From Thermodesulfobacteriota bacterium (lineage in GTDB: Bacteria > Desulfobacterota > Desulfobacteria > Desulfobacterales > C00003060): DNA of 64,000 nt. A program made the position numbers. This document shows, in pieces, positions 18,001 to 24,000 of this stretch (position 1 is its first letter; each line of letters starts with the position of its first letter). The stretch spans positions 1 to 64,000 of the forward strand of contig JAXHVD010000008.1 in the NCBI GenBank assembly GCA_034189385.1. Direction: 5' to 3'.

Positions 18001-21000
18001 CAGATTCTACGTATTTTGTTACCCTTATAGATACTGCATCCCCACCCTGTTGCATTCTTGCCATGGGATATGGCGGTGCCGATTTTACGGGGTGAAGCTG
18101 TGCGGCGTATAAGTACCTAGCATTACTGGCAAGCGTTTCCACGTCTAACGTCTTTCAGGTCACAATAGGGAAAGATTGAATGGAATCACGCAAGCTGGGC
18201 ATTGGACATGGTCAGATTATCCTGGACAGCATTGCTGACGGGGTCTTCACGGTGGATTTGGAATGGCGAATTACCTCCTTCAACAAAGCTGCTGAAGGGA
18301 TCACGGGAATTCCGCGTGAAGAGGCCATTGGTCAGCCTTGTTGTGAAGTACTAAGGGCCAATGTCTGTGAGGACGGTTGTGTGCTACGCCGGACCATGGG
18401 CAGTGGAAAGCCCATTCGAAACATGCCCGTTCACATCATCCGTGCGGACAAGAAGGTCATCCCTGTGAGTGTGAATACGACCCTGTTAAGGGATGAGGAG
18501 GGCCAGGTGATAGGTGGTGTGGAAACCTTCAGCGATTTGACCTTGGTCCATGAACTGCGCAAAGAGCTTCGCAAGGGGCATTCCTTCGGCGATATTGTCA
18601 GCAAGAATCAAAAGATGCTGGAGCTTTTTTCAATACTGCCTCACATTGCCCAGAGTAATAGCACGGTCATGATTGAAGGGGCCAGCGGCACCGGCAAGGA
18701 ACTCATAGCCAGGGCCATTCATAATGGGAGCTTGCGGAAGCAAGGGCCTTTTGTGGCCGTAAACTGCGGCGCAGTGCCTGAAACCTTGATCGAATCGGAG
18801 CTTTTTGGATATAGGGCCGGGGCTTTTACGGACGCCAAAGGGAATAAGCCGGGCCGATTTGCCCTGGCAGAAGATGGGACCCTCTTTTTGGATGAAATTG
18901 GGGACATCTCGCAGGCGGCCCAGGTGCGGCTTCTTCGGGTCCTGGAACAGAAGGTATACGAACCATTGGGCTCTACCAAGCCTGTGAAGACGAATGCGAG
19001 GGTGATCACGGCAACCCATTGCAACGTGGAGGAGATGGTTCAACAGGGTACGTTCAGAGAAGATTTATACTACCGCATTAATGTGGTGAGACTATCCCTC
19101 CCACCCCTGTCGGAACGAAAAGGCGATATCCCCCTCCTGGTGGACCACTTCTTGGATCGCTTCAACCATCTGACAGGAAAACATTGCGTCGGTCTCTCGT
19201 CAGAAGCCATGGCCACCCTCATGCTTTGCGAATGGCCTGGAAATGTGCGCGAACTTGAAAACGCCATCGAAAGCGCCTTTGTCCTTTGCCAGGGAGAACT
19301 GATTGAACAGCGCCACCTGCCCAAAGAGCTGATTCCTCAAGACCGATCTGGGGTTGTCAGTACCGGTTTGACGCTTAAAGAGGCAGAAAGGCGTACCATT
19401 GAGGAAGCCCTTGAGAGGAATCATTGGAGAAAAGTCACAACAGCCCGCGAACTGGGGATCGATAAGAATAGCCTTCGTCGAAAGATAAAGCGCCTCGGCA
19501 TTGTGAGACCTTCCGACTGACCCCGCCACCCTCTATTCCCGCTGAGCACTTGTCGTTCATTGGCAGCTTCGTTGCCTTGGATCTGCCCCTATTTGAACCA
19601 GTGTCTTTGCACTGGGGAAAATGCTGTCCCATATTGTTCCCTTTAAGCCCCGCTGCGGGGGAATGCTGCCCCATATTGTTTCCCGCAGTGCGATTATTCA
19701 AGAGGAATGGAACAGTTTGTTCCCTTAAAACGCCCCTAATGCTCTAAATTGTTCCCAAATTGATGCTGGAGCCCTGCCTTCATCATGCCACCACGGCGCA
19801 GATTACTGTGTTTTTCCAATTGGTTATCTTCATGACAAAGAGACTTCCACGGGCTGGCACGATTCTGGCTTAAGACATTTCCACAACAAACCAGATCTGG
19901 GTCATGTTGCCATGGGCCATGACGATCATCATGTAGCCCTGTTAAGGCGTTGGCCAATACACGGACTGCAGAGTCCTCTCTTTGCGGTCCTTGGCTCTTT
20001 TTTGACACCTACAATACCCTGGAGCGGTAGGTTGAGCACCACCAGAGCAAACCCTGGGGCAACGGGGGGTGATCTTTTCAAATGGCATCAACGTATTTAG
20101 CGGAGGGGGTGATTTGCGGCAAGGATGAGGGACTGCCATAGCGGTTTACATGGCAGATCCACTAACTGGTCAGAGGAGGCAATCATTCATTGAAGGTTTG
20201 AAAGCTGGTCTTAAAAAAATGCAGACAAAAGGCGTGATATGAGAGAGATGGACTTTCCTTGTAGAGGAGGAGTAGAAAACAAAAAGGGAGGAGAAATGAA
20301 AAAAGAGACAGATCTTAGTAGAAGGAAGTTCTTGAAAGGGAGTGTCATCGGGGCCGGTGCCCTGACAGCGGGCTTTGCAGGAGGCCTTGGTGTCCCCGGC
20401 ACCGCCCATGCTTCGCTCCCGGTGTTGCCGCTGCCGTATTGTAAAGACAGTGGCGGCACCCCGACGAACACGCCGAACGCATCGAATCAAACCGTCCTTG
20501 ACCCGGACGACGTGCGGGTCATGACCTGGTGGTATTATTCCTCCCAGGGCAAGGGGTGAATGCAGTCCGTTGTGTCAGGTTTGATGCAAGGATTCAAAGC
20601 GGCATTTGCCAGTGACGGCACGGACTGGGACTTTATTCCCTACGACATGTTAACTTACGGCGGAGGCGGCATTGGCGGTTGGGGCACCCTGTGCGGGATT
20701 GCCAACGGGTGTCCAGCGCTGTGCAATCTCATCGGCCTCCACGGCGCCCTGGGATCAGACATCCTGGGCCACTATTCCAGCACCGAGTGGCCGCCTGCGT
20801 CGCTTGCCGACATTTACTGGGATGATGATCCCACCTACGGCCCTTCGAGCGCCGGCTACAGCGGTATTTGGTCGGCAGCCAAGACGCCCATACCGGATGA
20901 CGAGGTCTTGGCCAAGGTGATCCCTTATTCACCCCTGTGCCACATTTCCATCAGCAAGTGGTGCTATGCGGCAGGCGTCAACTTGGGGAGTCCGAATCCC

Positions 21001-24000
21001 TATGGCTTCACGCACAAGAATGATCGCTGCGGCAAGATAGCCGCTGAGATGGCCGGTTATACGGCTGAACTGATCAATTATTACGCTCTTAACGGGGCCT
21101 CGGCAGATCCGTACGCGATCCCAGCGGCAACTGCAGACTGCCTTACCTGTCACTACACAGGGAGCAATCCCAATATAGCTCCCGCCCAGATCACCAAAAT
21201 GGACTGCGCGGAGTGTCATGCGGTCACGCCCGACGCCGTTCATCAAGGCCTGAGGATGATCGTTGAAAGTGTGTGGACAGCAGACGGCTCCGGCACGCCC
21301 AAGAACACCTTTACCTCGGGTGACCCGATTCAGTACAAGGTTCGGTTCCACCTCTTGGGTGCCGGCTTTAGCTTCGTGAAGACCGCTGATTCCAAGGTAA
21401 AAGACAGTGCAGCCGTCAAGATGCTGAAGCTTATCAAGAGTGACACGTTAGTTGCAGCTACCTATGAATGGACGTTTTCTGACACCATCGACCCAACCGA
21501 TGCCCTTGGCACGGCAAAGGTCGTTATGAAATTGAAGTGCTTCGACTATCAAGGTGGCAATCTCCTTGATAAGCAGGAAATGAAGTACAAGTTTACCATC
21601 GTATAAGCGCCTTCCGCAAAGAGCCTTGAGGCTGCAACCGCATGATTTCAGGGGTGGCGGTCGATAACGTGGCTTGCGGAGGGTTCCCATCCCAGCTCCC
21701 GCCCACTGCTTGGGGTGGGGTAAAACAAAGAGGCGTTCACGTGGGGTTGCCGGTTTTTTGGGCAAGGCCGGTGATGTGGTGGAAACAGATAGCGCCAGCG
21801 TTCTCCTGGCTCAGAATCTATGAAAGGAGGTGCATCATTATGGCTGAACAAGCAATAGATCTCGACAAAGTCACAAGAAGCTTCAAAAAGGAGGTCATGG
21901 AAGTCATCCCGGGCGGGGGCAATTTGGATCTGTGCCTCAACTGCGGGACGTGTGCTGCGGGCTGCCCTGCCACGGGTCTTGCAGACATGGACCCCAGGAA
22001 GTTTCTAAGAATGATCCTGCTCGGTCTGCATGAAGAGGCAACCAAGTCGCCCTGGGTATGGATGTGCACCGGGTGCCAGCGTTGCATCTACGCCTGCCCC
22101 ATGGAGATCGACATCCCCAGGCTGGTGTACAACGCGCGGGCCACGTGGCCCCGTGAAGAGCGGCCAAAGGGGATCCTTGGTTCATGTGATATGGCATTGA
22201 GAAATGACAGCGGTAGCGCCATGGGGGCATCTCCTGAGGACTTCACCTTTGTCGTAGAAGATGTGCTCGAAGAGGTGAAGGAGAGCCAGCCCGGCTGGGA
22301 GGAGCTCCAGGCCCCCGTAGATAAAAAGGGCGCCCATTTCTTCTTAAATCAGAATTCCAGGGAACCGGTGACCGAACCGGATGAACTCATCCCCTTGTGG
22401 AGAATCCTGCACGTTGTTGGTGCCGACTGGACATACGGGAGCAAGGGATGGGCTGGAGAGAACTACTGCATGTTCCTTGCCGACGACAAGTCCTGGGAGC
22501 ATGTCACACGGACCAGCATCATGCAGTGTGCAGAACTGGGATGCAAGGTCTACCTCAATACCGAATGAGGGCACGTCACCTTTTCAGTCCTGGAAGGACT
22601 GAGAAAATTCAAGATCCCTTACGATTTTGAAGTAGCGAGTATCTATCAATATTATGCAAAATGGATCCGGGAAGGAAAGCTCAAGGTCAACTCCGACTGG
22701 AACAAGGACCTGAAGCTGAAATTCACGGTGCAGGACCCCTGTCAGATCATTCGCAAGAGCTACGGTGATCCTGTAGCAGAGGACCTGCGTTTTGTGGTCA
22801 AGTCTGTTGTGGGAGAAGAGAATTTTATTGAGATGTGGCCCAACAAGTCGAATAACTTCTGCTGCGGTGGAGGCGGAGGCTTCCTCCAGTCAGGATATGC
22901 CGATGAACGTCGGGCCTATGGCAAGATTAAGTTTGACCAGATCGTGGCGACAGATGCTGATTACTGCGTTGCTGCGTGCCACAACTGTCATGCGCAGATC
23001 CACGATCTGGCCCATCACTTCGAAGGCAAATACCAAACCGTCCATTTGTGGACACTGATCTGTCTCTCCCTGGGGATCCTGGGTCCGAATGAACGTGAGT
23101 ATCTCGGAGACGACTTGAAAGAAGTCAACATGCCGCCCGAGTAGAAAGGATCCAGGCATTGAAGGCGTCCCGCTAACTGGTAGGTGGGACGCCTTTTCTT
23201 TTGATCGTAACTCTCTCTGAACGCATGCACGGGCGACCGGCCTCCTTTTAGGAGGTCGGTTTTTCCCCTTCAGGAACAGGCCGAAAGTCCGGCTTTTTGC
23301 CCTTAAAAAGGTCCCTGATGAACCCAAAGACCTTCTTGATCCCCCGCCAGATCTTGGGAAGGAGCCAAATCATCAGCAGAATGAAGATGATAACAAGGCC
23401 TACAAAGACCCAAGGATAGTGAAGGGCCGTCCACAGGCCGCCCACCACGGCCACGTCTTCCACCACAGAGGCCGTCCAGTTTGTCACCGGTTCAGGAGAG
23501 GTGTTGATGAGGACCCGTGTCCCGGCCTTGGTGGCGTGGCTTACTGCTGCAAGGCCCCCTCCCATGATGCCTGCGGCCACGGCCACGGCCGGATTCACCT
23601 CACCCACGGCGCCTGCGGCCAAAAGGGCCCCCGCAGGGATGCGGATAAAGGTGTGCAGCGTATCCCAGCCCGTGTCCACGCCCGGGACCTTGTCGGCAAA
23701 AAACTCTACCAGGTACATAACGCCGGCCGCTGCAATCACCAAAGGATTCATGAGGACTTCAAGCCCGGCAGGCAAGACGATGTTTCCGGTCACCCCGAGG
23801 AGTCCCAGGACTAAAATAGCGGCGTAGAGGTTGATCCCGCTTGCCCATGCAGCGCCCATGGTGAGAGACAAGGTTCTTACAAGCTGATCAAAAGGTTCCA
23901 TGGTCTTGCCTCCTTATGCCATCACTTCCTGAGGTGCACCCACACGGCGTGGATGATGCCCGGGACGTAGCCCAAGAGGGTGAGGATGCAGTTGATCCAA

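Follow-up and report, generated by a model that had tools for sequence, protein, structure and literature searches.

A probable selenocysteine form of split-Soret cytochrome c, exported by the Tat pathway, in a Thermodesulfobacteriota bacterium

Two adjacent gene calls (g03539 and g03540) in the window, i.e., the 64,000 nucleotides analyzed here (contig JAXHVD010000008.1, positions 1–64,000, assembly GCA_034189385.1), are likely a single gene encoding a Tat-exported selenoprotein, which would be a selenocysteine (Sec) form of split-Soret cytochrome c. At the sequence level this explanation is carried by a single reading frame, Sec recoding signals, homology to a known family, invariance at four positions and the distribution of a C-terminal module, all of which are read directly from the data.

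One gene with an in-frame TGA

As read from the window sequence, the frame spans 436 codons with a sole in-frame TGA at codon 88 (Table 1), in the context WWYYSSQGKG-U-MQSVVSGLMQGF. The copy on contig C12 (217117–218436, 82% identity) is likewise one frame, with its TGA at codon 94, and the copy on C29 (17712–18950, minus strand, 59% identity) has a cysteine at the Sec site (ANGG-C-MNGAASGL). The first-pass annotation had described the locus in these terms, as single genes with an in-frame TGA, exported through Tat and accompanied by a Cys paralogue, and our analysis bears it out on each point. Cleavage of the signal peptide would occur after AHA, as judged from its sequence.

Table 1. Features of the selenoprotein locus and its neighbors (window coordinates).
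Feature	Position	Strand	Evidence
Sigma-54-dependent activator with a PAS domain at its N-terminus, preceding the selenoprotein gene	18180..19520	+	Pfam Sigma54_activat 1.9e-66, PAS, HTH_8
Probable selenocysteine-containing split-Soret-type cytochrome, 436 residues	20296..21606 (stop codon included)	+	Frame with one TGA; homology to 1h21_A; AF2 mean pLDDT 89.6
Twin-arginine signal peptide, residues 1–39 (SRRKFLKG ... AHA)	20296..20412	+	TIGR01409, 23.5 bits vs. cut-off 16.7
UGA codon 88, almost certainly read as selenocysteine	20557..20559	+	Opposite Cys in homologues and Cys of GFGC in 1h21_A
SECIS-type hairpin; upper stem 20570–20577 with 20582–20589, loop GGUU 20578–20581	20564..20594	+	MFE fold
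CGxxxG motif of the C_GCAxxG_C_C domain (C133-G-I-A-N-G-C)	20692..20712	+	C133 and G134 invariant in A1 and A5
Third invariant Cys and invariant His, C215-H216 (SPLCH)	20938..20943	+	A1 and A5
Fourth invariant Cys, C245 (DRCGK)	21028..21030	+	A1 and A5
First haem c attachment site (C282-L-T-C-H286)	21139..21153	+	C282, C285, H286 invariant; aligned with first CxxCH of 1h21_A
Second haem c attachment site (C304-A-E-C-H308)	21205..21219	+	C304, C307, H308 invariant; aligned with second CxxCH of 1h21_A
C-terminal beta-sandwich module, ~120 residues	21232..21603	+	AF2 of domain alone pLDDT 92.6, all beta
HdrD/HmcF-like Fe-S protein with in-frame TGA (22566–22568)	21840..23144	+	Pfam Fer4_17 and CCG; NCBIfam HmcF 165.6 bits vs. 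cut-off 750
Terminator-like hairpin after the HdrD-like gene, 14 pairs, then a T run	23161..23196	+	Terminator prediction

Recoding of UGA-88

UGA-88 is almost certainly decoded as selenocysteine, judging from the sequence comparisons. Among 154 public hits scored at this position, 95 carry a cysteine and 48 a TGA, and each TGA-bearing hit has exactly one TGA within the match. These 48 relatives reach down to about 36% identity with both the frame and the TGA position kept, and a single clade with strong support (SH-aLRT 98) retains Sec in 36 distinct sequences. In 41 of 68 protein clusters found by similarity, the first residue is the Met directly past the TGA, and in 10 more it is the next Met; these gene calls are thus truncated at the same codon. 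The genome encodes a tRNA-Sec (72.2 bits, anticodon tca, above the curated cut-off) together with selB (370 bits), selA (612.6 bits) and selD (388.8 bits), all exceeding their cut-offs.

The SECIS-type hairpin starts ~13–14 bases 3' of the U of UGA and presents GGU in its loop. Among 35 relatives, at least 90% share G22 and G23 and at least 70% share T24, to be compared with G23 and U24 of the E. coli fdhF element. In 13 close relatives, 96.2% of hairpin cells are paired, with compensatory changes in two of the eight pairs. In 22 more distant relatives, with the hairpin shifted by one to three bases, 93.2% of cells are paired and four of the eight pairs show compensatory changes (23 cells), a level that none of 500 shuffles reached (slid controls, 27–49%). 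No comparable hairpin was found in any of the three Cys forms with a nearly identical peptide (L101, L104, L110). By MFE energy alone, Sec and Cys contexts cannot be told apart: certain GC-rich Cys contexts fold more stably (−19 to −23 kcal/mol), and the hairpin in the window itself has a z-score of just −1.72.

Homology to split-Soret cytochrome c

The protein does not represent a new family: from the Tat signal through the four-Cys C_GCAxxG_C_C domain of the iron centre to the two CxxCH sites, its entire body is homologous to split-Soret cytochrome c. A phmmer comparison with 1h21_A (E 2.1e-13) covers chain residues 25–98 and 144–237 and places U88 opposite the Cys of GFGC; Foldseek ranks the same chain first (E 7.9e-10, target TM 0.77, 271 columns), and the hits that follow cover the C-terminal domain only. 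With NCBIfam NF047622, the score of 73.9 bits over two stretches (the best being residues 206–311) lies below the equivalog cut-off of 400, and the protein is therefore a homologue of split-Soret cytochrome c rather than an equivalog. This partial match, the TAT signal, the relationship of both CxxCH sites to split-Soret cytochrome c and the lack of any Pfam match to the query over cut-off reproduce what had been noted before. The proposal that the family arose in this lineage fails on two counts: homology spans nearly the whole 1h21_A chain, and PF09719 (C_GCAxxG_C_C) is matched by 49 of 97 aligned relatives (E ≤ 0.001). Two Kryptoniota homologues, L034 and L050, score 46–51 bits with it. The query itself has no match to PF09719 (gathering cut-off 27 bits) at E ≤ 1.

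Residue invariance was evaluated in two alignments, A1 with 39 rows and A5 with 97. Both contain the order C ... CGxxxG ... C ... C, as U/C88, C133-G-x-x-N-G, C215 and C245, so that by order and spacing U88 would be the first Cys of C_GCAxxG_C_C. In a profile comparison with one classical member of this family, the CGxxxG region alone aligned (E 0.057). In the AF2 model, the N-terminal ends of helices 87–103, 134–145 and 215–226 bear U88, C133 and C215, respectively.

Distribution and the C-terminal module

A search of 401 genomes of the order (one genome per species, match threshold E ≤ 1e-20) gave matches in six genomes, three of them outside the genus, of which one (G192, from another family of the order) carries the TGA. 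Within the genus, five of the six matching places have one TGA, as the first-pass annotation had counted. Sec forms lacking the C-terminal module occur in G192 and in the Desulfobacterales MAGs L017, L018 and L020, and possibly in a Bacillota MAG (L063). The suggestion that the selenoprotein is genus-restricted thus does not stand, given these genomes and the 48 public TGA-bearing relatives. It does stand for the C-terminal module, which is confined to this genus in a 301-genome sample of the order and is the only genus-restricted part in the genomes sampled.

This module terminates eight exported proteins of the genome and has no Pfam or NCBIfam match. Its similarity to the end of the ten-haem cytochrome on C12, previously seen by eye, was recovered by tblastn (39% over 121 residues, E 5.7e-18) and by profile comparison (E 3.5e-31). 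VIA-align gave a Z of about 11, tied among many Ig-like sandwiches.

Gene neighborhood

Regulators of the same kind as the upstream sigma-54-dependent activator adjoin relatives in L094, L099, L120, L135 and L136. Upstream of the selenoprotein gene no convincing −24/−12 promoter was found, pattern matches being not above chance. Downstream, the HdrD-like frame has its own in-frame TGA, as previously described, with a hairpin 3' of it (z −2.84); we set the start of this gene at M67 of the frame beginning at 21642. It is probably co-transcribed with the selenoprotein gene here, and no terminator was predicted between the two. This neighbor is missing beside every other locus fetched, and its DNA is 91.7% identical to that of a copy within an MvhD/HdrA-like operon on C28; it is a recent duplicate and not a conserved partner. 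Cytochromes adjoin the C12 copy, and the two copies have different neighborhoods, as do the relatives among themselves, so that the idea of a protein working with adjacent cytochrome clusters finds no support in conserved gene order.

A possible role for the selenocysteine

In the mechanism that we propose, SelB and tRNA-Sec would recode UGA-88 as Sec via the SECIS hairpin, giving a protein composed of an N-terminal C_GCAxxG_C_C domain (U88, C133, C215, C245), two haems at C282xxCH and C304xxCH, and the beta-sandwich. As the replacement for cysteine at the first of four invariant positions, Sec probably ligates a non-haem iron centre; U88, C133, C215 and C245 would together hold this centre, with selenium as one ligand. 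This assignment draws on the invariance of these positions and on the iron centre of 1H21 (an entry titled “a novel iron centre”), which we take to be a four-Cys [2Fe-2S] cluster. Because additional cysteines are present in split-Soret cytochrome c (e.g., SKWC), the set of ligands could be a different one. The iron centre would be loaded in the cytoplasm, a step that would account for the use of Tat, and the haems attached after export. Once in the periplasm or on the cell surface, the protein would pass electrons between this centre and its two haems. The beta-sandwich at its C-terminus would probably dock or anchor the protein, and the protein may dimerize like split-Soret cytochrome c.

Alternative readings

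If the TGA were a true stop, the locus would comprise an 87-residue Tat-signal fragment and a 348-residue signal-less protein, as two genes or one broken gene. Gene callers everywhere do split the locus there, and an ATG lies immediately 3' of the TGA, yet haem c could be attached to the downstream part only after export, for which it would have no signal, the Cys homologues are continuous, and residues 41–88 pack on the protein body in the AF2 model (pLDDT 95–98). With frame, TGA position and covarying hairpin also kept in the 48 relatives, we find a true stop scarcely credible. Very improbable, too, is a new periplasmic haem-selenoprotein family born in this genus of ANME-partner bacteria and working with the adjacent cytochrome clusters. 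Such a birth would fit the confinement of the long form with its module to the genus (one genome per species), the sub-threshold scores of curated family models and the cytochromes beside the C12 copy. It is opposed by the full-length homology to split-Soret cytochrome c and C_GCAxxG_C_C, by the module-less Sec forms (G192, L017, L018, L020 and possibly L063), by the variable neighborhoods of copies and relatives, and by a family entry already in print (Zhang et al., 2022, PMC9312934).

A reading in which the Sec is catalytic rather than a passive cluster ligand deserves more weight, even if we consider it unlikely. The protein would then be a haem/iron selenoenzyme of the periplasm or cell surface acting on a small substrate (polysulfide, sulfur or selenium species), the Sec attacking the substrate and electrons coming through the two haems. 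Retention of Sec over deep divergence is as in selenoenzymes, the presence of dedicated PAS-domain regulators next to many relatives suggests that a specific signal induces the gene, and one relative (L015) is flanked by TauE sulfite-exporter-like and rhodanese genes. In Geobacter, MccSep was shown to use an essential Sec next to a haem when it reduces polysulfide (PMC13510729), and catalysis on sulfur compounds by haem and Sec therefore exists in this phylum. However, MccSep comes from another family, by its published description, and has its Sec in a C-terminal Ig-like domain rather than in the N-terminal domain as here. Moreover, the loci examined have no substrate-related neighbor in common, split-Soret cytochromes c have no known activity, and the four invariant positions all resemble one metal site.

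Comparison with known systems

The closest known system is split-Soret cytochrome c of Desulfovibrio desulfuricans ATCC 27774 (PDB 1H21), which has a like order of Tat-type leader, Cys-rich iron-centre domain and two CxxCH sites. Mutants in the two split-Soret cytochrome c genes of D. alaskensis are reported to have little phenotype (bioRxiv 10.1101/005694). At about 24% identity, the protein described here differs from the D. desulfuricans cytochrome in three features: Sec at the site of the first conserved Cys, an additional insert at about residues 170–205 and a 120-residue C-terminal beta-sandwich that the latter lacks. Classical C_GCAxxG_C_C members, by comparison, are about 140 residues long and to our knowledge have no haem sites, whereas ours is a dihaem, Tat-exported, three-domain form. 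As to selenoproteins, a C-GCAxxG-C-C family is listed as a predicted selenoprotein in Table 1 of PMC9312934 (representative WP_012158890.1), and the family is thus not undescribed as such. Neither the Sec motif nor its position is stated in that table, and the main-text passages searched in PMC2398784, the source cited for the family, make no mention of it; the likeness is one of a shared four-Cys domain family (PF09719).

MccSep (GSU2936) of Geobacter sulfurreducens, shown in 2026 to be a pentahaem polysulfide-reducing selenoenzyme, is, like the present protein, a c-type cytochrome that is exported and contains a single Sec; the report on it (PMC13510729) describes it as common in Desulfobacterota and as overlooked by gene callers in most cases. 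It differs in family, in its five haems and in a Sec located near a His/Cys haem, and its Cys-type members are described as emerging inside the Sec-type clade. The T9SS sorting domain (Pfam Por_Secre_tail) found on L034 and L050 and on P0106 likewise forms an extreme C-terminal beta-sandwich on a split-Soret-type body, as a tail common to unrelated exported proteins, the likeness to our unmatched module being one of architecture only.

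Gene structure and protein family

When its TGA is read through, the gene gives a single 436-residue frame whose sole TGA is codon 88 (context WWYYSSQGKG-U-MQSVVSGLMQGF), and two further copies lie on other contigs of the same genome: one on C12 (82% identity, TGA at codon 94) and one on C29 (59% identity) with a cysteine at the equivalent site (ANGG-C-MNGAASGL). Translation and comparison thus agreed with the first-pass annotation, which had described one frame containing a TGA, a second TGA copy and a Cys paralogue, and its family scores were reproduced as well (NCBIfam split-Soret cytochrome c, Ssc, at 73.9 bits vs. 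a cut-off of 400; TAT signal above cut-off; no Pfam family above cut-off).

The proposal that these proteins form a new family did not hold, however. Against solved structures, phmmer matched the Ssc chain 1h21_A (PDB 1H21; E 2.1e-13) over two stretches (residues 25-98 and 144-237 of 247), with the selenocysteine (Sec) facing the Cys of GFGC, and an AlphaFold2 model built from 97 aligned relatives (mean pLDDT 89.6) had the same chain as its top Foldseek match (E 7.9e-10, target-normalised TM 0.77), followed by matches to the C-terminal domain only. The Pfam family C_GCAxxG_C_C (PF09719) was matched by 49 of these 97 relatives (E <= 0.001), and not by the query. Position 88 is Cys or Sec in every row having the N-terminus, and residues G125, C133, G134, P166, C215, H216 and C245, as well as the haem sites C282, C285, H286, C304, C307 and H308, are invariant over all 97 rows. 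Together, these matches and invariant residues define the architecture: a Tat leader, a four-Cys iron-centre domain with Sec at the first Cys position, a pair of haem c sites and, at the C-terminus, an additional domain. We refer to proteins with and without this last module as long and short forms, respectively.

Table 1 of PMC9312934 names a "C-GCAxxG-C-C family protein (pfam09719)" as one of the selenoproteins predicted for prokaryotes. Literature searches combining "split-Soret" with "selenocysteine" found nothing, those with "2Fe-2S" nothing informative on ligands, and the accessible text of papers mentioning split-Soret cytochrome gave no described Sec form known to us; selenoproteome supplements may already contain such sequences. 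New here is a Sec-bearing, three-domain split-Soret cytochrome, belonging to a diversified clade that is systematically mis-called.

Decoding of UGA-88

Sec machinery, a hairpin downstream of the codon and the Cys/TGA alignment, in combination, make it very likely that UGA-88 is decoded as Sec. The genome encodes a tRNA-Sec (72.2 bits; anticodon tca by ARAGORN), selB (370 bits), selA (612.6 bits) and selD (388.8 bits), the last with a TGA of its own. Among relatives' DNA (best 80 of 146 matches in one-genome-per-species contigs and best 80 of 97 in metagenome contigs), the residue opposite position 88 was Cys in 95, TGA in 48 and another in 11 of the 154 scored matches. Most of these 11 have a Cys 1-3 residues off the position, and every TGA match contains exactly one TGA within the matched stretch.

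The RNA directly 3' of UGA-88 forms a hairpin whose loop is GGUU. The 48 TGA matches reduce to 36 distinct 48-base contexts, 35 of which were retained for the SECIS alignment (the Bacillota locus L063 was excluded for its differing peptide and absence of a comparable hairpin), and among these the hairpin occurs in two registers. In the 22 more distant sequences, positions 15-22 pair with 29-36 in 93.2% of cells (slid controls, 27-49%), with compensatory changes in four of eight pairs (23 cells); none of 500 shuffles reached the observed cells paired, two-sided-change cells or covariation score, and 50 of 500 reached the observed count of pairs with two-sided change. In the 13 close sequences, positions 14-21 pair with 26-33 in 96.2% of cells, and two of the eight pairs are compensatory. 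At least 90% of rows in the 35-relative alignment keep G22 and G23. One covarying pair joins the third base of an Ala codon with that of a Glu/Asp codon, and where the Ala codon is GCG, Asp replaces Glu and the pairing is preserved. The hairpin is absent in three Cys forms of near-identical peptide (L101, L104 and L110). Folding energy alone is not decisive, the window hairpin having a z of -1.72 and some GC-rich Cys contexts folding more strongly. Rfam returned nothing relevant for window 17400-23400 (E <= 1) or, at gathering score, for the relatives' loci L094, L099 and L105.

The L063 protein is an Ssc homologue whose gene has a TGA in place of the same Cys, lies beside genes for molybdopterin oxidoreductases and shows nothing comparable to the hairpin within the first 50 bases; this gene may be broken or may have gained Sec independently.

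Distribution, gene calling and Cys/Sec evolution

Searching 5.8 billion clustered proteins by similarity recovered 68 clusters, down to ~27% identity, of which only ~10 cover position 88. Of the 68, 41 start at the Met immediately after the Sec codon and another 10 at the next Met (clusters P0045 and P0047 also start with the same MNAAAS motif, and P0064 with MHGSAS). This is a systematic annotation error: at least 51 of the 68 public clusters are entered as fragments whose start lies directly behind the Sec codon, which hides from databases a sizeable clade of selenoproteins in marine sulfate reducers. When cluster representatives were searched exhaustively without a profile, 373 proteins reached E <= 0.001, and 21 reached E <= 1e-30.

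Within a sample of 401 genomes of the order, six match at E <= 1e-20, namely the genome studied, two of 12 others of its genus and three from two other families, one of which (G192) has the TGA. Other Desulfobacterales MAGs (L017, L018 and L020) have Sec forms lacking the C-terminal domain, and the Bacillota MAG L063 possibly does too. The selenoprotein is thus not restricted to the genus, contrary to the first-pass annotation. One metagenome contig (L120) holds two Sec-containing short-form genes; behind each comes one member of a family of small companion proteins, and a PAS/sigma-54 activator is close by.

For the Cys/Sec history we built a quick maximum-likelihood tree of the Ssc body only (117 rows, each covering query residues <=68 to >=300 with either Cys or Sec at position 88; the short label of some rows, L108, L115 and L118, reflects nothing more than truncation at a contig end). 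The 36 Sec rows and three Cys long forms, of the type of the C29 paralogue, form one clade (SH-aLRT 98), with the Cys forms nested inside the Sec rows and a minimum of four Cys/Sec changes on the tree. However, a tree with the 36 Sec rows as a single clade was not rejected (AU test, p 0.55) and was 3.35 log-likelihood units better, and we therefore do not claim that the Cys paralogue derives from a Sec ancestor.

Genomic context

A PAS-domain sigma-54 activator lies upstream of the window gene. Across 23 scanned loci, many of them short, the same kind of regulator flanks L094, L099, L120, L135 and L136, and PAS histidine-kinase/LuxR-type regulators flank L105, L017 and L018. Our search for a -24/-12 (sigma-54) promoter gave none that was convincing (86 pattern matches vs. 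71.5 expected), the two pattern sites upstream of the gene having one mismatch each. Upstream similarity between the window and C12 copies is confined to the last ~105 bases before the ATG.

No terminator was predicted between the selenoprotein gene and the HdrD/HmcF-like gene downstream, whose TGA is followed by a strong hairpin (z -2.84). As a conserved partner this neighbour was rejected: it is found beside none of the other fetched loci and is a 91.7% DNA duplicate of the C28 copy, whose operon is MvhD/HdrA-like and which lies tail-to-tail with a C_GCAxxG_C_C gene of the classical kind. Around the C12 copy of the selenoprotein gene the neighbours differ: a MopE-motif protein, cytochromes and radical SAM genes.

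The small companion family recurs beside short Sec forms and may be their partner; its members are membrane-anchored, have no Pfam family and carry a repeated motif around DPCTQxIxVDG ... GDxVExTY.

Coordinates of the selenoprotein gene, its surroundings and related loci
Feature	Location	Remarks
Ssc selenoprotein gene	window 20296-21606 (+)	
Rnf-type membrane subunit, ferredoxin-like protein, ApbE with Tat signal, DUF3795, NifB/X-type (Nitro_FeMo-Co) protein	window 13102-17478	upstream of regulator
Sigma-54 pattern sites	window 19561; 19855	
HdrD/HmcF-like Fe-S protein	window 21840-23144	in-frame TGA 22566-22568, in first CCG domain
Strong terminator	window 23161-23196	after HdrD/HmcF-like gene
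HdrD/HmcF-like paralogues	C28:15827-17122 (-); C1:31610-32905 (-)	three in genome with window gene
1616-residue protein	C12:211108-215958 (L172:4109-8959)	21 MopE-type putative metal-binding motifs; just upstream of C12 selenoprotein copy
YedE-like sulfur/selenium transporter, Se/S carrier-like protein, Sec-containing SelD (clustered)	C29:8015-11831 (L173:15-3832)	~6 kb from Cys paralogue
Short-form Sec genes	L120:180-1100; L120:3501-4388	
Small companion family	L017:5055-5537; L018:5384-5968; L120:1149-1739; L120:2356-2883; L124:2624-3328; L127:2622-3326; L128:4933-5415	
Ssc homologue with TGA, Bacillota MAG	L063:4106-4153	
Module, three Ssc paralogues	C63; C12; C29	profile
Module, ten-haem cytochrome	C12:219773-221671	profile
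Module, 2028-residue protein with 17 PKD domains		profile
Module, three further large exported proteins		profile; open frames of 707, 782 and 1075 codons
Module, places on the 17-PKD protein (first) and on the three further large proteins (the rest)	C14:3502-9588; C14:690-2801; C12:241728-242093 (-); C6:65014-65382 (-)	
Ssc homologues, Kryptoniota	L034:3992-5113; L050:3926-5107	

Possible role of the selenocysteine

In the AlphaFold2 model, Sec at codon 88 (U88), C133 and C215 are all located at helix N-termini. We take the iron centre of 1H21 to be a [2Fe-2S] cluster bound by four cysteines. The title of that structure names a "novel iron centre", which, as judged from sequence, the four invariant non-haem positions would most naturally hold, and we infer that Sec serves as an iron ligand, the mechanism we prefer. 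Its main rival is a catalytic role for Sec, which has a recent precedent in MccSep, a pentahaem polysulfide-reducing selenoenzyme of another family (PMC13510729). Should Sec instead bind the iron of the non-haem centre, this one genome offers in its Sec copies and its Cys paralogue a natural pair, which would let the effect of selenium on an iron-sulfur site be measured.

The C-terminal module

Residues 313-436 form an all-beta sandwich (pLDDT 92.6, domain modelled alone on 31 rows). In a structure search (VIA-align), its best scores (Z ~11) were tied among Ig-like sandwiches of many unrelated families, among them glycosidase accessory domains, transglutaminase, RbmA, the Wzt carbohydrate-binding domain and macroglobulin domains, and because of these ties the fold gives no function. 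ESM Atlas scores with the module were <=0.87 (generic Ig-like or arrestin-like), and a word-based search for longer proteins carrying it returned close Ssc relatives only. Homology between the module and the small proteins that accompany the short forms was rejected (phmmer E >= 0.2).

A profile search placed the module on eight proteins of the genome. In the five that are not Ssc paralogues it ends 0-8 codons before the stop, and in the three Ssc paralogues the alignment reaches the last or next-to-last residue. Across 301 genomes of the order, it was present in four of eight from the genus and in none of the 293 others; the module, rather than the selenoprotein as such, is the lineage-specific part. 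A tail common to unrelated exported proteins suggests, speculatively, a role in sorting, docking or anchoring. Its presence on both cytochromes and giant PKD proteins is a lead to the surface decoration of this genus, which bears on the electron exchange of partner bacteria with methane-oxidising archaea.

It is tempting to speculate further, in a scenario that we consider unlikely to hold as a whole, that the genus-specific module would be a new sorting or anchoring tag to the cell surface or intercellular matrix, placing there all eight carriers, that the Sec-ligated iron centre would turn the long form into a haem/iron selenoenzyme displayed on the surface or a tuned relay for electron transfer between species, and that short Sec forms elsewhere would perform the same chemistry in the periplasm. 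A parallel to the module exists in Kryptoniota, where the Ssc homologues on L034 and L050, and the protein P0106, carry at their C-terminus a sorting domain of type IX secretion (families Por_Secre_tail, FlgD_ig and CHU_C), which by domain assignment would imply surface display of Ssc-type cytochromes in another phylum.
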